A stretch of 64,000 nt of DNA from Desulfomonilia bacterium (GTDB taxonomy: Bacteria; Desulfobacterota; Desulfomonilia; UBA1062): the NCBI GenBank assembly GCA_050014195.1, contig JBEKDT010000014.1, forward strand, positions 1-64,000, given 5' to 3'. A model generated the notes under the pieces. That model was not told where the DNA came from. It worked only from the letters and a program-made list of their open reading frames with translations, and did no database searches. This document shows, in pieces, positions 13,150-22,903 of the stretch (position 1 is the stretch's first letter; each line of letters begins with the position of its first letter). The position numbers were made by a program, and so were the translations under genes.

Positions 13150-16100
13150 ATGCTATCACCAGGACAAACCAACCAAATCTTTCCGGCAATACTTCCTGCA
13201 CTTACCACGTTGTTGTTGTGCACCTTGATCCTTTTCCCCATAGGAAAGCAAGGCAGGAATGTCTGGAAATTCAGACTGCTGGGGATCATTTGTTGCCTTG
13301 GATGGCTTTACAGCCTTGGGTATATCGGTACACTCTTCAGCGGATCCGCCATAGTCCTCTCTGCAGTGCGCAGGTTTCTCTTTCCCCTTTACTTTTTCTT
13401 CCTCCCGCTTTGCGTTCATCTTTGCCGAAAGATATCACGTGCCCGATCCAGAAAATACCTTTTGGGGACTTTTTATGGCATAACTACACTCCTTGTTGCT
13501 ACTTCCTGGTGGGTGCAGGCACTGCCGGAATTGATTTTCCCCCTGTTAGCCGGTGCAGGGGTCATTTATTGCGCCCTTATCCTGTATAGTGCAATGGGTG
13601 AGAAGAGGATGACCAGCCAGGCTCTCGATGTATGGTTTGTTTTCTCAGGCATTACAGGATTATTGATCCTGGCATCCATGCAAACGTACTCCTTTCTGAG
13701 CAGTGCGTCTGTTTCGTTTGCGTTCATCCCCCTGGTGTTCCTTGCGCTTGGAGTAGTTATAAATGAGGAAGCCCAGGAAGAACCAGTCATCAAAAGGGGA
13801 GAGCTTATCAAATGTATCATGGCGGCATTCATCTTGTTGCCGATTTCCTATGACATTATTGTTCTTGTCCTGAACCTGGGGAGCATAAATCTCGGAATGT
13901 ATCTGTCGAACCTCTTATCCTTCGGTTTGGCGAAGATTATCTCCATAACGATCTGTGCAAGCCTCGCCTTGTTTCTCTTCACCAGGAAGACGGACCAGAC
14001 CAACAACACCCTGATTGCACTGAACTGCATGCTCCTGGCCATACTCAATCTCAGAGATGTGGTAATCGCCCTTCTCCCTGAGTTCCAAACCCTGCAGATC
14101 TTCCTTCTGCATGATATCTTTATCGCAGCATCAATAGGCTCATATGTCCACCTCGTATACCGTATTGCGCAGAAACCACGTAGTATCGCTATTCCTTTGG
14201 GGTATGGCATCAGTGGTATACTCATATCGTTGCTGATCTTCAAGGCTGGTCTTACCGGTATCCAGGGGGAAGGCATCATGCATGCGCCGCTTGTGTGGGT
14301 GCTGCTTGCCATATTCTGTTATTGCAGTATTGTCCTGTTCAAGGCATCAAGGAAAGAGGCTGATCCTCAGAGAAAAGAAGGATTGAGGATTTTCTTCATC
14401 GGCTCCGGGCTTGCCATTCTCATACAGGCCTTTAACTTCCTCTCCAGCTTGGGCATCGACCCCGTACAGGTCGATACCCTCCTTGTCATCCCTGCCGCTT
14501 TGATCGTCTATGGACTCACCTATAAAGATCTCCTGAACATGAGTATGTCCTCAAAGAGGCAGATGCTCACAACAGGCCTCAAGGCCGTCCTTGCTATTGC
14601 TTATATAGCCATCAGCCCGGTCTTTTTATGGATATTACACGAATATGGTGCACTCTATGTCATCAACAGGATCATACCCTATGGCATACCCCCTCTTTTA
14701 TCCTTTCTCTGTGCAGCGGTTCTCTCATTATTTGTTTTAGGTCTTGAACAGAATCGTCTCGAGGCGATTCTCTTCAGCCTTATCAGCTTCTGTTATGCCC
14801 TTTTAAATCTTGATATCACCCTGGTGGCCATTGTACCCGACATCAACCTTGCATTGAAGATTTCCCGTCTCGATCACTTCTTTCTTTGTCTTATCATGTT
14901 CGGGGTCAATCTCCATCTCAGCTATCTCGTGATCGGAAAGAAGACCAAGTGGTGGGTAGTCTATGCGGCATACATTATCGGGATCATCATGGCGCCACTT
15001 TCCCAGACCCGCTACTACTTCCAGGGCATGTATACCTATTACTGGGGATACTTTGCTCACAAGGCCATACTTTTCGATATTATGAGCGGACTATGGCTTG
15101 CCGGTCTTCTCTATGGAATCTATCTGCTCAATAAGGAACGCAAGACGACAAAGGCCTTGCAGAAGACCAAGGTCAGTCGCGTCCTTAGAGCCTTTCAAAT
15201 CCTGGCCGCATTGAGCATGTCCAATATCCCGGCCATCAACGGGGTCGAGTTCTATCCACTCGGGACCTTTGCATTCATAGGACTCATCTACCTTGCCTAT
15301 GGCCTTTTCGTCTTCAATCTAAGACATGCCCTCCAGCAGGTGAGGGCCGCCGTTTTCTGGATCGGCATCGTTATCCTCCTTGGAGCGATCGGGCTCTTTC
15401 CTCAGAAAATACTGCACGTCGAGAATTATACCACCCTGATGCTTGTGAGCGTACTCGGGGTGGTCATCCTCTTTCGTCCGGCGCGCAAGGGGTGGAATGC
15501 GGTGGTGAATCTGTTTATCATGAATGAGAGGGACGAACTGAATGACGAATATGCGCGCTTTACAGAAAACCTCTCCCATATTCATCATCTCAAGGACATC
15601 CATCAGGCCCTCAATGAGTGGTCGTTCCGTGTGTTCTCAACTACATTCTGCGCACTTCTTGTCCGCAGGGGAGATAATGAATCCCTCAAGGGCTGGAATA
15701 CATGGAACACAAATTTTTCATCAGGGCTCTTCAGCAAGGATGATGACATACCCTGCGGTGAACACCTCCTTGACATAGAACCTGATCATGCAATTTCAAG
15801 GATCGCAGGCATGAGCAATGGCATTGCATCAGGCGATATGCTTGCGAAGATGATATCCGAGTTACCGTCTAAGACAAAGCGTGAATCCGAGCTGTTCGAA
15901 TATGCGGAGATCCTTCTCCCTGTCAGTCTGGGTGATCATAGCCTTGCTGTGCTCTTGCTTGGAAGGAAAAACAACGGATCAGGCTACAGGGCCTCCGAGA
16001 TCGATCTGATCCAGTCAATGGTCCTCGTGCTGGGACCCTATATTGAAAATGCATTGCTCCTGGAATCTCTTGAAGGCCAGGTCAACAAACGAACGAGTGA

Positions 16101-17166
16101 TCTCAATAAAGCCCTTATCGAGGCCATGCTCAAGGAAAAGGAGATCATAGCCCGGAATCAGGTGATCGAGACGCAGAATCAGATCATGGCGGTCCTGCTC
16201 GAAACGAGTACAAGGATACACCATATTGAAGGGTTGGATGATCTCTTCAGCTTTACCCTGAATCAGCTGAAGATCCTGTTCCCTGATCTATGCGGAGGTA
16301 TTATCATTGAAGGAGCCAAGCGGAACATCCTTGAAGCCAGTGCATTTGTGGGCCTGAGTGATGCGGAGCAGAAGGTCATCCTGGAACACAGGCTTAGGAT
16401 CACCGAACCTGGAATCGATACTATTTTACGCGCGGAGATGGAAAAGGAAGAGATTGTGGGAAATAGTCCGGACACACCGTTCTGGAAGGTATTTCCTTTG
16501 CAGGGAAGGAGTGAGAAGGCCGTTGGGTATATGATCCTTAAAGGAAAAGACCTTGACGGGCCAACAGGAGAGACGGTCATCCTTTTCATTGCCCAGATCT
16601 CTGCGGTTGTGCAGAACAGGCTCCTGCTCACCCACTTGGAGAAGATGGCAAGCACGGATAGTCTCACCGGCGTCTACAACCGGTCTTTCCTGGACCGTGA
16701 GCTGGGAAAGGCCGTCAAGCATGCCAAGCGTATCAAGAATATGTGGTTCTCGCTTATGATTATTGATGTGAACGGGCTCAAGCAGATCAATGATACCTAC
16801 GGACACGGGGTGGGAGATGAGGCCATCATCAAGGTAGCGGGCATGCTCAAGTCGGCATGTAGGGACACGGACATCGTCTCGCGCATCGGAGGAGATGAGT
16901 TCGCCGTACTGATGCCCTCGACAAACCTGCCTCAGGCTGAGATCCTCCATACCAGGATCAGGGATGGGGAAACGGGCCTAAGGGTGCTTCTTACACCTTC
17001 TGAAGGCAAACATATCAATATCCCCATCCGTATCAGCATCGGGCTTGCAAGCTCAGATGAATCAGATCCTGATAACGTCATGAAGATGGCCGATGATCGC
17101 ATGTACCTTGACAAACAGCATTATTATGCAATGCGGGCCAAAGAACCAAGTTTTGCGCGTCAATGA
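13150..17166 (+). CDS. Polytopic membrane diguanylate cyclase (tandem 7TM-like sensor repeats, GAF-like regions, GGDEF)
   Basis: About 780 aa hydrophobic N-terminus, TDSLTGVYNR, D.NGLKQIND.YGH..GD, intact GGDEF with RxxD I-site (RDTDIVSRIGGDEF). Confidence 0.88.
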   Translation: MLSPGQTNQIFPAILPALTTLLLCTLILFPIGKQGRNVWKFRLLGIICCLGWLYSLGYIGTLFSGSAIVLSAVRRFLFPLYFFFLPLCVHLCRKISRARSRKYLLGTFYGITTLLVATSWWVQALPELIFPLLAGAGVIYCALILYSAMGEKRMTSQALDVWFVFSGITGLLILASMQTYSFLSSASVSFAFIPLVFLALGVVINEEAQEEPVIKRGELIKCIMAAFILLPISYDIIVLVLNLGSINLGMYLSNLLSFGLAKIISITICASLALFLFTRKTDQTNNTLIALNCMLLAILNLRDVVIALLPEFQTLQIFLLHDIFIAASIGSYVHLVYRIAQKPRSIAIPLGYGISGILISLLIFKAGLTGIQGEGIMHAPLVWVLLAIFCYCSIVLFKASRKEADPQRKEGLRIFFIGSGLAILIQAFNFLSSLGIDPVQVDTLLVIPAALIVYGLTYKDLLNMSMSSKRQMLTTGLKAVLAIAYIAISPVFLWILHEYGALYVINRIIPYGIPPLLSFLCAAVLSLFVLGLEQNRLEAILFSLISFCYALLNLDITLVAIVPDINLALKISRLDHFFLCLIMFGVNLHLSYLVIGKKTKWWVVYAAYIIGIIMAPLSQTRYYFQGMYTYYWGYFAHKAILFDIMSGLWLAGLLYGIYLLNKERKTTKALQKTKVSRVLRAFQILAALSMSNIPAINGVEFYPLGTFAFIGLIYLAYGLFVFNLRHALQQVRAAVFWIGIVILLGAIGLFPQKILHVENYTTLMLVSVLGVVILFRPARKGWNAVVNLFIMNERDELNDEYARFTENLSHIHHLKDIHQALNEWSFRVFSTTFCALLVRRGDNESLKGWNTWNTNFSSGLFSKDDDIPCGEHLLDIEPDHAISRIAGMSNGIASGDMLAKMISELPSKTKRESELFEYAEILLPVSLGDHSLAVLLLGRKNNGSGYRASEIDLIQSMVLVLGPYIENALLLESLEGQVNKRTSDLNKALIEAMLKEKEIIARNQVIETQNQIMAVLLETSTRIHHIEGLDDLFSFTLNQLKILFPDLCGGIIIEGAKRNILEASAFVGLSDAEQKVILEHRLRITEPGIDTILRAEMEKEEIVGNSPDTPFWKVFPLQGRSEKAVGYMILKGKDLDGPTGETVILFIAQISAVVQNRLLLTHLEKMASTDSLTGVYNRSFLDRELGKAVKHAKRIKNMWFSLMIIDVNGLKQINDTYGHGVGDEAIIKVAGMLKSACRDTDIVSRIGGDEFAVLMPSTNLPQAEILHTRIRDGETGLRVLLTPSEGKHINIPIRISIGLASSDESDPDNVMKMADDRMYLDKQHYYAMRAKEPSFARQ

Positions 17167-19230: not shown

Positions 19231-20079
19231 ATGGGAAAGAGAAAGCATAAACCCGACAAGCCATGCTTTGCCCCGATATACATTATTTCCGGTGGTACGG
19301 GTGCAAGCGGCCTGCAGCTCGTGAATACCGTGCTTGCCCAGTTTCCTGGTTTTGAAGTTCCTGTTGTCGCCAAAGCACATGTAAACAGTATCACCCAACT
19401 GCAAGATGTCCTCGATCAGTCAGAACAGACCGGCGGTATTATTGTGTATACCCTCGTGGATACCTTCCTGAGAAATACCATGAACTCTCTTGGCAACAAG
19501 CATGGTGTGCCTGTTATCGATCTTATGGGGGTATTGATGGAACATCTCTCAGAGATGCTTGATAGTAATCCTGTCTGTCGCCCCGGCCTCTATCATAACC
19601 TGAACAAGCGCTATTTCGATCGTGTGGAAGCCATTGAATTCTCCATTGCCCATGATGACGGGCTGAACCCCCAGGACCTTGACAAAGCCGAGATTGTGTT
19701 GGCCGGGGTATCTCGGGTGGGCAAGACACCTCTTGCCATGTACCTTGCCATGCAGGGGTTCAAAACAGCGAATGTGCCGTTCATACCAGGACAGTCTCCC
19801 CTGCCGGAACTCGATCAGGTCGAACCCGGGCGTGTTATCGGGTTGACTATTGATGAGACGCGCCTTGTATCCCATCGCAAGGACCGTAAAGAGAAGCTCA
19901 AACTCGACAGGCATGGTGGTTATTCGGATCTTAAGATGATCTTTGATGAGCTGGAACAGGCACGGAAAATTTTCAGACAAAAAGGATATTCCGTGATCGA
20001 TATTACGAACAAGCCTTTGGAGACCAGCGCCGATGAGATCGTGAAGATCATAACGCGAAGGTTCGGCAACAGGGAATAA
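19231..20079 (+). CDS. Pyruvate,water/phosphate dikinase regulatory protein (DUF299 kinase-pyrophosphorylase)
   Basis: YFDRVEAIEF...HDDG, GVSRVGKTP, ANVP, IDIT.K..E motifs. Confidence 0.9.
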   Translation: MGKRKHKPDKPCFAPIYIISGGTGASGLQLVNTVLAQFPGFEVPVVAKAHVNSITQLQDVLDQSEQTGGIIVYTLVDTFLRNTMNSLGNKHGVPVIDLMGVLMEHLSEMLDSNPVCRPGLYHNLNKRYFDRVEAIEFSIAHDDGLNPQDLDKAEIVLAGVSRVGKTPLAMYLAMQGFKTANVPFIPGQSPLPELDQVEPGRVIGLTIDETRLVSHRKDRKEKLKLDRHGGYSDLKMIFDELEQARKIFRQKGYSVIDITNKPLETSADEIVKIITRRFGNRE

Positions 20080-20418: not shown

Positions 20419-21495
20419 ATGAGAATCATTGCCGTTATAAATCAGAAGGGTGGGTGTGGCAAGACTACTACCAGCATAAACCTCGGGGCATGCCTGGCTA
20501 AGTTGAAGAAAAGGGTTCTTGTGGTGGATCTTGACCCTCAGGCCCATGCCACATTGGGTTTCGGAATCAACCCAGGTGAATATCAGAAGAGCATCTATGA
20601 TCTTCTAATTGGGAAAGAGAAGGGAACGGTCTTCACGAGTGATGTCATCATGAACCTGGCCCAGAACCTCGACCTGATCCCTTCGGATGTCATGCTCAGT
20701 GCCGCCGAGCCCATCCTGCTTCAGAGAGATCACCGCGAATATTCTCTGGCTGATATCCTTAAACCCTTGTCCGAAAAGTATGATTTCATCATAATCGATT
20801 GTCCCCCGAATATCGGAATCCTCACGTTCAATGCCTTGTATGCATGCACCGAGGCGATCATCCCCATGGAAAGCGGCCTGTTTGCCCTCCATGGTCTGGC
20901 AAAGCTCCTGGAGACCATCCATCTGGTAAATATGAAGAGGGCTATCAGTATCTCTGCATATGCCCTTGCCACCATGTACGACCGCAGGACGAAAATCGCC
21001 TATGAGTCCTTGGAAGAGCTCAGGAAGCATATGCATGGGCACGTGTACAAGACGGTCATCAATGTTAATGTGAAACTGAAGGAGGCTGCGGGATACGGAG
21101 AGTCCATTATCATGTACGCCAGGAACTCCCCCGGCGCCAAAGACTACCAGAGCCTTGCAAAAGAGATTATGTCCATCAAGAAGCTCAAGAAGGTGAGGAT
21201 AGAAGAGGATGAGAAAATCCTCAAACCAATGGTCACGAAAGACGGCGTGTTGTTCACATACTATTCTCCGAAGGCCTCCCGGGTATATGTAGTGGCTGAT
21301 TTCAACGACTGGAATATGGATGGGCTCCCCATGGTCAATATTGAAGGTACCGGCATGTGGCAGAGGATTGTTCCCCTCAAGAAGGGCACATATGAATATA
21401 AATTCTATGTCGACGGCCACTGGGTGAGCGATCCCAATAATCCGGACAAGTTGAAAAACGAGTTCGGTGAGAACTCCCTTATTGAGATCGACTGA
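20419..21495 (+). CDS. ParA/Soj-family ATPase fused to C-terminal CBM48/AMPK-beta-type glycogen-binding domain
   Basis: Deviant Walker A NQKGGCGKTT, DLDPQ, IIIDCPP, TMYDRRT; last ~85 aa: FTYYSPKA..V.V.ADFNDW...M...GMW...VPL..G.YEYKFYVDG.W.SDP.NP......G.NS. Confidence 0.9.
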   Translation: MRIIAVINQKGGCGKTTTSINLGACLAKLKKRVLVVDLDPQAHATLGFGINPGEYQKSIYDLLIGKEKGTVFTSDVIMNLAQNLDLIPSDVMLSAAEPILLQRDHREYSLADILKPLSEKYDFIIIDCPPNIGILTFNALYACTEAIIPMESGLFALHGLAKLLETIHLVNMKRAISISAYALATMYDRRTKIAYESLEELRKHMHGHVYKTVINVNVKLKEAAGYGESIIMYARNSPGAKDYQSLAKEIMSIKKLKKVRIEEDEKILKPMVTKDGVLFTYYSPKASRVYVVADFNDWNMDGLPMVNIEGTGMWQRIVPLKKGTYEYKFYVDGHWVSDPNNPDKLKNEFGENSLIEID

Positions 21496-21497
21496 CC

Positions 21498-22337
21498 ATG
21501 AAGGAGCGGCCCAAGCTGGGGAGAGGGCTACCGGATGTATCAAAGTTTTTTCTGAGTGATGCCTCACACCAAGAACAGAATGCAGGGGAAGTTACATGCT
21601 CGACTTTTGCACCGGAATCCCTCTATATCTGTTCCCCCGGATCGCCGCTGATCCAATCCATAGTCACGGCGAATCTCGCCCTGGAGCTTGCAAGGCACGG
21701 CCACCGTGTACGTATACAAGATTTTTCCACATCCAATGAGACTCGCCTGTCGACCCTGATGGGTTCAATACTTTTCCGTGATGATAGAGACCCGGGCAAG
21801 GCCTTTGTGAGGCTTTACGGGCTGCCGGAGATCATGATAGAAGACGGCTTTTCGGGAGACCTTGGGAAAGAAAAGGAATCTCCTCATGAGGCTGAGCCTT
21901 ATAGGGATGATACAGGCAGTTTGACCCTGGTGAATGCACCCGTTTTACTTGACTTCATCCAGGGAAGGGCTCCATCCGATGAATACATCATCCTCACCAT
22001 GACCGATGAGAAGTCTCTGCTTAAGTGTTATGCCTATATCAAGGTCATTCATGCGCACGGTGAATCAAGCAGGGTTCACGTGGTCTTTGACGATGCGGTC
22101 AATGGAATAAACTCTGATACCGTTTTCAGGAAGTTTGCAGGATTTATCAATGAGCGCCTCGGGTTCGAAGTAGATTATTTCGGCAGCCTTCTTCATGATG
22201 AGCACCTTGAGCGCTCTATCTCCGAAGAAAGGCCGCTCGTGCTCTTTGACGGCATCTCCATTACAAAAGATGCACTCATCAGGATCTGTTCCCTCTTATT
22301 GGAAGGCTACAAAGAAGGCAGGTTAACAGAGCCATGA
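21498..22337 (+). CDS. MinD/FlhG-like protein with degenerate P-loop and N-terminal LGRGL peptide
   Basis: ANLALELARHGHRV, S...CYAYIK, YFG.L.HD..L..SI..ERP resemble FlhG/FleN; Walker A position reads SPGSPLIQS; N-terminus KLGRGL. Confidence 0.7.
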   Translation: MKERPKLGRGLPDVSKFFLSDASHQEQNAGEVTCSTFAPESLYICSPGSPLIQSIVTANLALELARHGHRVRIQDFSTSNETRLSTLMGSILFRDDRDPGKAFVRLYGLPEIMIEDGFSGDLGKEKESPHEAEPYRDDTGSLTLVNAPVLLDFIQGRAPSDEYIILTMTDEKSLLKCYAYIKVIHAHGESSRVHVVFDDAVNGINSDTVFRKFAGFINERLGFEVDYFGSLLHDEHLERSISEERPLVLFDGISITKDALIRICSLLLEGYKEGRLTEP

Positions 22338-22903
22338 TGCGTCTGCTGAAACCTGTTGATATAACCGACCCGGCCCGGGTCATCAGGTTATGCGCTCAGT
22401 GGATCAAGGAAGGACTGGGCTTGAAAATCGTAGAGTACCGAATCGGGAACACCTTTACCGGGAGCATTGATATCCTGGCCACAGACTCAAGCAAGATCTA
22501 TCTGGTCACCATTAATACCGATAGGCTCAGTGATGCCCTGCTCGGTGCTCTGAGGGGCTACGGATGGTATATTGAGAACCTGGGTTTCCTCACAAGGATC
22601 TACCAGCCAAGCGAGATCGACTTCTCGCTCCCGCCGGTTCTTATGATCCTCTCCGCATCGTTTCCGCCTGAGATTACTTCCATCCTCCGGCATGGACTGA
22701 AGGCGGATGTGAGGCTGTTCAGATATCTCATCCTTGGTTCCGAAGACGATCCTGACCTTTATGTGGAGGAACTTGGCGGCACCCAGATTGCTGTCGATGC
22801 AGCCCCTTTTGACCCGGCAGCCCTCAAACAGGAGCTCGGGATCGAAGAGGCGGGCCTCACGGATGAGGAGATCAAGGAATTCCTGACAGCCATGAGGACA
22901 TGA
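22334..22903 (+). CDS. Hypothetical protein, inactivated NucS/PD-(D/E)xK-like fold with acidic C-terminal peptide
   Basis: GSIDILATD...LVTIN resembles NucS 'G.iDiLa.D...vviElK'; ATGA overlap with upstream gene. Confidence 0.55.
   Translation: MMRLLKPVDITDPARVIRLCAQWIKEGLGLKIVEYRIGNTFTGSIDILATDSSKIYLVTINTDRLSDALLGALRGYGWYIENLGFLTRIYQPSEIDFSLPPVLMILSASFPPEITSILRHGLKADVRLFRYLILGSEDDPDLYVEELGGTQIAVDAAPFDPAALKQELGIEEAGLTDEEIKEFLTAMRT

Follow-up and report, generated by a model that had tools for sequence, protein, structure and literature searches.

What partner serves a ParA-type ATPase that carries a glycogen-binding module, and what is the role of the degenerate ATPase-like protein encoded directly behind it? 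This question is raised by a locus in a Desulfomonilia bacterium, located within a stretch of 64,000 nucleotides (nt; GenBank assembly GCA_050014195.1, contig JBEKDT010000014.1, positions 1 to 64,000 of the forward strand) that is referred to below as the window. The locus comprises a gene for a Soj-type ParA fused to a CBM48 carbohydrate-binding module (CBM), here called ParA-CBM48, followed by an open reading frame (ORF) for the protein that we term the pseudo-ATPase, and by a third gene, ORF3. Because the pseudo-ATPase combines the body of a dead ATPase relative with a ParB-like peptide and a constant position behind ParA-CBM48, it is probably an activating partner and not an enzyme. On balance, we lean towards the prediction that it is the cognate activating or adaptor partner of the upstream ATPase, acting through its N-terminal peptide. 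The features of the locus are:

20419-21495, + strand: ParA-CBM48 gene, 358 residues (aa), with the Pfam families AAA_31, AMPK1_CBM and CBM_48
21498-22337, + strand: pseudo-ATPase gene, 279 aa, ORF confirmed, fold and profile those of FlhG/MinD
21498-21557, + strand: N-terminal peptide of the pseudo-ATPase, residues 1-20, with basic residues, LGRGL and a short amphipathic helix (DVSKFFLS)
21558-21617, + strand: variable, low-confidence linker of the pseudo-ATPase, residues 21-40, between peptide and globular domain
21618-22337, + strand: degenerate MinD/FlhG-fold domain of the pseudo-ATPase, residues 41-279, from Foldseek and profile matches
21633-21659, + strand: degenerate P-loop position SPGSPLIQS, residues 46-54
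22334-22903, + strand: ORF3, 189 aa, predicted PD-(D/E)xK fold without E-x-K, with a conserved C-terminal helical tail

Only 2 nt separate the ParA-CBM48 stop from the pseudo-ATPase start, and the pseudo-ATPase and ORF3 genes overlap by 4 nt. A promoter scan of the locus gave chance-level output only and was not used.

Fold and catalytic motifs of the pseudo-ATPase

An earlier reading of this DNA from its letters alone (the sequence-only reading) had described the protein as a dead ParA-superfamily member that follows FlhG along its length, with its Walker A motif replaced by SPGSPLIQS. The ORF and every string quoted there were found in the sequence: MKERPKLGRGL at residues 1-11, SPGSPLIQS at residues 46-54, ANLALELARHGHRV, YAYIK and YFGSLLHDEHLERSISEERP. 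Family scans were uninformative, as Pfam returned no family at E<=1 and NCBIfam a single chance match (E 0.065). A word-indexed search recovered 64 homologues at E<=0.001, mostly unnamed metagenome proteins, with a few labelled Desulfomonilia, Desulfobacterota or 'MinD/ParA family ATP-binding protein', and an exhaustive phmmer search against 1.84 billion representatives gave 157 at E<=1e-3, 25 of them at E<=1e-30. The alignment and profile used here were built from 34 of the 64 homologues, picked to span the identity range. Searched against PDB sequences, this profile matched FlhG (4rz3, E 2.5e-14) and FleN (E 1.3e-8 to 1.9e-8), mainly over pseudo-ATPase residues 136-276. An AlphaFold2 model was obtained with a mean predicted local distance difference test score (pLDDT) of 79.5 and a predicted template-modelling score of 0.77, residues 1-37, 121-138 and 275-279 falling below a pLDDT of 50. 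Its top Foldseek matches were FlhG (4rz3_A, E 3.4e-11, template-modelling scores 0.58/0.66), FleN (5j1j) and MinD (1hyq), all with a probability of 1.00. Structure prediction, fold search and profile match thus agree on the FlhG/MinD fold.

The catalytic motifs are degenerate. The deviant Walker A signature K-G-G-x-x-G-K-[ST] is not present, and the position of its lysine is held by Q53, which is invariant in the 34 homologues. In the profile alignment GKGGVGKS of FlhG faces HPGSeliQS; the P-loop segment alone aligns weakly (3.8 bits), and its placement agrees with the model, in which a strand spans residues 41-45 and a helix residues 50-66. The Walker B aspartate of FleN (VVDTAAG) faces N146, which at least 90% of homologues share. 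At the Switch I/Walker A' motif D-x-D, which also lies in a weakly aligned segment (3.8 bits), the first aspartate, D75, is shared by at least 90% of homologues and S77 stands at the second position. The replacement of Walker A by SPGSPLIQS is therefore confirmed, with an invariant glutamine at the lysine position and a near-invariant asparagine at that of the Walker B aspartate. Besides Q53, the residues of the body that are invariant in the 34 homologues are N59, A61-L62-E63, L106-Y107-G108-L109-P110, Y178, D234, S240 and P246.

When the profile was searched against the bacterium's own genome, it matched only the pseudo-ATPase itself and one FlhG-like gene on contig 3, leaving Soj and the neighbouring ParA unmatched; the pseudo-ATPase is thus a member of the FlhG/MinD branch and not a duplicate of the adjacent ParA. 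The view of the protein as a dead superfamily member is borne out with this placement, and, judged from its fold and lost catalytic motifs, the pseudo-ATPase is a catalytically dead relative of FlhG/MinD ATPases. The FlhG-like gene (contig 3, 232150-233130, 326 aa) is the genome's only intact FlhG/MinD-like gene; it adjoins an SMC-like gene (1170 aa), and its product opens with the P-loop strand itself and has no N-terminal activator helix. More distant metagenome relatives of the pseudo-ATPase keep partial P-loops (GKS, GKT, EKS or DKS), and some carry a C-terminal amphipathic tail, as judged by eye. No longer fused forms of the protein were found at E<=0.001, which is weak evidence.

The N-terminal peptide and its putative ParA target

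In the 34 aligned homologues L7, G8, R9, G10, S15 and L19 are invariant and K6 and L11 are conserved in at least 90%, while across 16 wider loci L7, G8, R9, G10, L11 and S15 are invariant. The peptide carries the basic residues K2, R4, K6 and R9 and is modelled at a pLDDT below 50, with a helix at residues 12-19. Residues 21-40 hold no conserved column in the 34 homologues and have pLDDT values of 33-44; the length of this linker differs widely among homologues, and protein length ranges from 274 to 372 aa. By alignment, then, no other part of this fast-evolving protein is as well conserved as the peptide. We also scanned a 596 Gb collection of species-representative genomes with a degenerate DNA pattern for [KR]LGRGL[DE][DE]xSH. 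The pattern occurred at 22 places, 18 of which are the start of a pseudo-ATPase homologue; the remaining four (L049, L051, L054 and L055) have no family ORF, and about four matches are expected by chance from the information content. The peptide motif is more than a chance string.

The upstream protein is well defined. Residues 1-252 of ParA-CBM48 form a Soj-type ParA ATPase whose deviant Walker A (NQKGGCGKTT) is intact; after a variable linker, the C-terminus (about residues 276-358) is a CBM48/AMPK1_CBM glycogen-binding module (Pfam AAA_31 1.5e-55, AMPK1_CBM 7.2e-11, CBM_48 1.3e-10). Its best PDB sequence match is ParA 8ray (6e-53). K219 aligns with R238 of Myxococcus xanthus ParA, and all 20 orthologues have K or R there (by eye); in M. 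xanthus, the R238E change removes non-specific DNA binding (PMC12462528).

The sequence-only reading had tied the pseudo-ATPase to this upstream ATPase, and synteny bears out a strict coupling: all 16 motif-found homologues with visible upstream DNA follow ParA-CBM48 (two further loci, L042 and L052, start at the partner gene, with no upstream DNA visible). ORF3 lies downstream in 12 of the 14 motif-found loci with visible downstream DNA, and host labels range over Thermodesulfobacteriota, Nitrospirota and Latescibacterota, among others. Four of four related genomes have the genes in the order ParA-CBM48, pseudo-ATPase, ORF3, with identities to the window's proteins of 60-75%, 26-47% and 37-66%, respectively; some of these genomes also keep the rubrerythrin, OmpA-like and kinase/pyrophosphorylase neighbours. 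Of 401 genomes sampled from the phylum, 21 were matched by a ParA-CBM48 profile (the CBM is broken in one, and the other 20 have a full-length protein), and in 17 of the 21 a motif-bearing protein is encoded directly downstream. Searching the same sample with the pseudo-ATPase profile yielded five full-length members among the matches listed; since it missed diverged partners beside ParA-CBM48 in 12 more genomes, this search undercounts. Two irregular loci were seen, one, in a MAG, with the partner gene split into two ORFs of 157 and 183 aa by a frameshift or assembly error (L048, 3973-4957), the other with the CBM of ParA-CBM48 in a separate short ORF and no partner gene behind it (L074, genome G035).

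Among the 17 phylum partners, five carry LGRGL, five carry HGRGL, ASRGI, KKRGL, QGRGL or LGRGM, and seven carry (R/K)(K/R)QLEEIAHLYF(S/P). The seven, which read (R/K)KQLEEIAHLYFSS, all come from one family of three genera. They are 290-474 aa long (L072, L073, L075, L076, L078, L079 and L080, in genomes G211, G117, G083, G297, G045, G269 and G241), and their bodies match the family profile weakly (E about 1e-4). Distant metagenome relatives share K(K/R)LGRGLE(E/D)(V/I)SH(L/F)FLS. Conservation of LGRGL therefore holds in the 34 aligned homologues but is not universal, a whole clade lacking LGRG. Given the variants without LGRGL, what all partners share is a Leu (or Ile/Met) that opens an amphipathic helix of the form L-[E/x]-[E/D]-[IVF]-[SA]-x-[LFY]-[FY]-[LF], with a basic residue two positions ahead of this Leu; in a more compact notation, the core is a basic residue and then L-E-E-[IV]-[SA]-H-L-[FY]-[FL]-S.

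How close is this peptide to that of ParB? In M. xanthus ParB, L11, L15, L18 and I19 enter a hydrophobic pocket of the ParA dimer formed by V116, L150, L152, L155, L187 and L192, and R13 contacts Y81, E82, D110 and E117, the R13A change abolishing ATPase stimulation (PMC12462528, Schnabel et al. 2025). The pseudo-ATPase motif L7-x-R9-x-L11-x-x-V14-S15 aligns with ParB L11-x-R13-x-L15-x-x-L18-I19 and matches it at L, R, L and V. The ParA residues were transferred through 8ray (chain index + 19 = M. xanthus numbering, fixed by the position of a D-to-A change). The pocket equivalents in ParA-CBM48 are P98, I132, I134, F137, L169 and R174, of which four of six (I132, I134, F137 and L169) keep the hydrophobic character; the arginine site consists of Y60, D61, M92 and I99, with two of four kept, Y60-D61 corresponding to Y81-E82.

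A MAFFT alignment suggests that, in one clade, the peptide and the ParA arginine-binding site have changed together. The 16 ParAs whose partners hold the R-G core have Y60 in 15 cases (H in one) and D or E at position 61 in all 16, whereas the seven ParAs beside (R/K)KQL partners have R60 in 7/7 and S or N at position 61 in 7/7. Co-prediction of two ParA domains with ATP, Mg and residues 1-32 of the pseudo-ATPase scored 0.15 and 0.01 (mark 0.32) and favours neither side.

The genome's own segregation proteins could offer another target for such a peptide. The chromosomal ParB has the N-terminus ...KPRLGKGIDALIP with the motif LGKGI, to which LGRGL is close, and Soj (contig 3, 194875-195669) holds a canonical pocket (V, L, L, L, L plus Y, D, E), so a cross-talk with chromosome segregation, in which the peptide targets Soj and not ParA-CBM48, may be considered. 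We hold this to be very improbable: the motif has Ser at the I19-equivalent position, which strongly impairs Soj-type binding in M. xanthus (PMC12462528), it diverges together with ParA-CBM48 in one clade, and the gene always adjoins ParA-CBM48, never soj. The genome also encodes two more ParA-ParB pairs with non-canonical ParB N-termini, which look like mobile elements (contig 7, 28241-30005 and 99719-101445), and an orphan ParA whose N-terminus is extended by about 70 residues (contig 23, 22134-23093).

Returning to ParA-CBM48 as the target, we propose the following mechanism. The disordered basic N-terminus of the pseudo-ATPase bears a ParB-like motif, a basic residue flanked by leucines and then a short amphipathic helix. 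This motif would bind the ATP-bound ParA-CBM48 dimer along its edge, at the site that Soj-type ParAs offer to ParB peptides, and the docked peptide would stimulate ATP hydrolysis. The dead MinD-like body, held on a flexible linker, may serve as a scaffold, probably working jointly with the co-translated ORF3 and its putatively inactive endonuclease fold. Since the ParA keeps its DNA-binding residue and its glycogen-binding module is well conserved, the most likely function of the three genes is to organise or sense glycogen-type alpha-glucan, the presumed cargo, relative to the nucleoid. In its complete form, in which a dead FlhG/MinD-lineage protein is a ParB analogue that fires a nucleoid-binding and glycogen-binding ParA while the dead body and the dead restriction endonuclease (REase) fold provide the anchor, this picture is tentative and somewhat doubtful. 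Nonetheless, an activating partner as proposed by the sequence-only reading appears to be the best available mechanism, strengthened as it is by synteny, the anatomy of the motif and one covariation event.

Several observations weigh against it. Invariant S15 occupies the position of ParB I19, and in M. xanthus a Ser in place of any of the four hydrophobic residues, including I19S, strongly impaired binding (PMC12462528). A 24-residue peptide profile run against PDB sequences at E<=10 returned three chance matches and no ParB chain, so that the likeness to ParB rests on a short motif; the description of the peptide as ParB-type stands for L, R, L and V, but not for the last hydrophobic residue or for recognition by profile. 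P98 and R174 in the pocket and M92 and I99 at the arginine site differ from Soj, although a site that is kept in part and altered in part is what one would predict if the ATPase has to stay free of cross-talk with the chromosomal ParB. The covariation goes back to one evolutionary event, confined to a clade of three genera, and is therefore suggestive only. Moreover, in four of 21 cases the 1.5 kb of visible DNA behind ParA-CBM48 holds no such partner gene: one has a small CBM protein in the partner's place, one is the broken-CBM gene, and two are followed by other or unrecognised ORFs. The ATPase can thus exist without this partner. The cargo-binding module sits on the ATPase, unlike in classical systems where the partner marks the cargo, which makes a ratchet logic hard to fit. 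Finally, a preprint interprets the cassette as an immune sensor (10.64898/2026.10.19.760177), as taken up below.

It is also conceivable that the body, and not the peptide, makes the functional contact: it could cap or pair with ParA-CBM48 at the ATP-sandwich face, the CBM or the linker and so control oligomerisation, while the N-terminal motif might bind ORF3 or act as a membrane or amphipathic anchor. The invariant body motifs (Q53, N59-A61-L62-E63, L106-Y107-G108-L109-P110, Y178 and D234) would fit such a role, as would the distant members with a partial P-loop (GKS, GKT, EKS) and an amphipathic tail resembling, by eye, the membrane-targeting sequence of MinD/FlhG; the second half of the motif (EE[IV]SHLFLS) is itself amphipathic and more universal than LGRG. 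However, the body evolves about twice as fast as ParA, it descends from FlhG/MinD and not from a Soj-type protein, and ParA/MinD dimer interfaces are described as homodimer-specific (bioRxiv 2022.06.09.495121). Invariant G-R-G and acidic residues would be odd for a membrane anchor, and the covariation sits at the arginine-binding site of ParA. A body-mediated contact therefore seems unlikely to us.

Cellular role of the cassette

The gene set has been catalogued before. An October 2026 bioRxiv preprint describes a 'CBM-containing system' whose second variant consists of ParA-AMPK1_CBM, a predicted-inactive second ParA and a predicted-inactive REase, and reads it as a putative carbohydrate-sensing immune system (10.64898/2026.10.19.760177). 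The cassette in the window has exactly these components. The main text of the preprint contains neither 'N-terminal peptide' nor 'arginine finger', although its figures or supplements may show the motif. Among the matches listed for literature with the string LGRGL there was none on ParB or ParA, nor the preprint itself; no literature match joined ParA/MinD, cargo and glycogen, and a search on ParA, CBM48 and glycogen gave only unrelated papers among the matches listed. What is new here is the peptide anatomy, the fit to the ParB motif, the coupling to ParA-CBM48 and the covariation.

ORF3 fits the third component of that variant. It has 38 homologues and belongs to no Pfam or NCBIfam family; its alignment comprises 24 sequences. 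Its AlphaFold2 model (pLDDT 83.8) gave weak Foldseek results, with one match at E<=0.001 and EndoMS (5gke) at a probability of 0.97, and the VIA-align list was dominated by PD-(D/E)xK nucleases: an XisH-like protein (2okf, Z 9.9), the FokI cleavage domain (9.0) and NucS (2vld, 8.8). As Z values of 7-8 are common with VIA-align, the evidence for an endonuclease fold is moderate. D46 is invariant, and the third strand reads LVTIN, without E-x-K (by eye). ORF3 is thus modelled as a restriction-endonuclease fold that lacks the E-x-K catalytic pair and is predicted to be inactive, in agreement with the 'inactive REase' of the preprint.

If the system were directed against phages or plasmids, the CBM would sense an infection-linked carbohydrate, ParA-CBM would multimerise, and the dead ParA and endonuclease would sense or regulate. 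This is the role proposed in section 29 of the preprint (10.64898/2026.10.19.760177); it concerns function and is compatible with the peptide mechanism. ParA-CBM48 is patchily distributed (21 of 401 phylum genomes), the pseudo-ATPase diverges fast, and endonuclease folds are frequent in defence systems, all of which would suit an immune role. The surroundings of the cassette speak otherwise: a housekeeping neighbourhood of OmpA-like, rubrerythrin and PEP-synthase-regulator kinase genes is conserved across three genera, and none of the 25 commonest Pfam families (best 25 of 117) in 103 neighbouring ORFs at 20 loci is a defence family. Three loci, probably close kin (L036, L037 and L046), have genes for a GH57 branching enzyme and a small CBM protein next to the cassette. 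PADLOC returned no match for the pseudo-ATPase or ORF3 and only weak P-loop matches for the ParA, and searches of 72,556 plasmids and 50,697 phages found nothing. The preprint calls the CBM rapidly diverging (10.64898/2026.10.19.760177). In 20 orthologues, contrary to this description, the CBM is not fast-evolving, with a mean pairwise identity of 45.6% against 53.3% for the ParA domain; twelve of its residues are invariant, among them F295, W298, W314, Y327, K328, W335, N341 and S353, which include residues of sugar-binding type. Gene context thus points, if weakly, to a housekeeping role linked to glycogen and away from defence; the patchy occurrence and the rapid evolution of the partner stay compatible with immunity, which we nevertheless regard as a quite unlikely role for this locus.

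Stand-alone CBM48/AMPK1_CBM proteins of about 100-140 aa are encoded convergently just after the cassette in the five loci listed here, and in L036, L037 and L046 the GH57 glycogen branching enzyme comes next:

L036, 6337-6642: small CBM gene after the cassette
L037, 6422-6781: small CBM gene after the cassette
L042, 1803-2228: small CBM gene after the cassette
L046, 6373-6669: small CBM gene after the cassette
L048, 5792-6097: small CBM gene after the cassette

The window's genome encodes GlgA and GH57 enzymes and, elsewhere on contigs 21, 6 and 4, three such small CBM proteins. A GlgA domain occurs in 342 of the 401 sampled genomes, so common a background that it is uninformative as to whether the cassette is tied to glycogen synthesis. 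Window positions 19231-20079, immediately upstream of ParA-CBM48, encode a kinase/pyrophosphorylase (PF03618, PEP-synthase/PPDK regulator type), which has the same place in two of the four related genomes and may indicate a tie to gluconeogenic carbon flow. Further upstream, before the OmpA-like gene, positions 13150-17166 encode a 1338-aa multi-pass membrane protein that ends, by eye, in a GGDEF-type domain.

Comparison with known systems

Many ParA/MinD ATPases count as 'orphans', their partners being so diverse that they escape recognition. The present analysis offers a testable rule for one widespread class of these orphans, namely a dead paralogue's N-terminal motif together with matching changes at the arginine site of the ParA. 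If our reading is true, the cassette would be the first system dedicated to the positioning of polysaccharide storage granules, and the pseudo-ATPase the first dead ParA/MinD-superfamily member to act as the activating partner of a live one; its confirmation would show that pseudo-enzymes are recruited as regulators inside their own superfamily, mirroring the action of the FlhG activator helix on FlhF. It would also give a handle on the question of whether glycogen granules are actively organised in bacteria or whether, as the preprint has it, sugars of the glycogen type signal infection, and the peptide/ATPase pair could serve as a small orthogonal positioning module.

Set beside ParB/Spo0J, the pseudo-ATPase has a peptide that is likewise extreme N-terminal, disordered and basic, of the form L-x-R-x-L-x-x-hydrophobic. 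Unlike ParB, it has no CTPase domain or helix-turn-helix (no Pfam family at E<=1, and the fold is MinD-like), its motif has Ser for the last hydrophobic residue and an extra F-F-L cluster thereafter, and one clade is without LGRG. McdA/McdB, MinD-MinE and PomZ-PomXY likewise pair an ATPase with an adjacent partner that has a charged N-terminal peptide; in the present case, however, the partner is a dead superfamily member and a CBM48 cargo module sits on the ATPase. ParA/MinD partners act through a disordered, positively charged N-terminus (bioRxiv 2022.06.09.495121), and the pseudo-ATPase has the features of this class, being encoded beside the ATPase and having such an N-terminus. This rule makes our reading ordinary in kind and new in the identity of the partner.

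The best profile and fold match is FlhG (YlxH/FleN), which shares the layout of N-terminal peptide, linker and MinD fold. Unlike FlhG, the pseudo-ATPase lacks the deviant Walker A and has Asn for the Walker B Asp, it begins with MKERPKLGRGL and not with DQAxxLR, and its C-terminus (...EGYKEGRLTEP) has no evident membrane helix by eye. It is linked to ParA-CBM48, not to flagellar genes, and its peptide is ParB-like and not FlhG-like. The N-terminal DQAxxLR 'activator helix' of FlhG stimulates the SIMIBI NTPase FlhF (PMC12327844), and by analogy this helix appears to be the closest architectural precedent for the arrangement proposed here.

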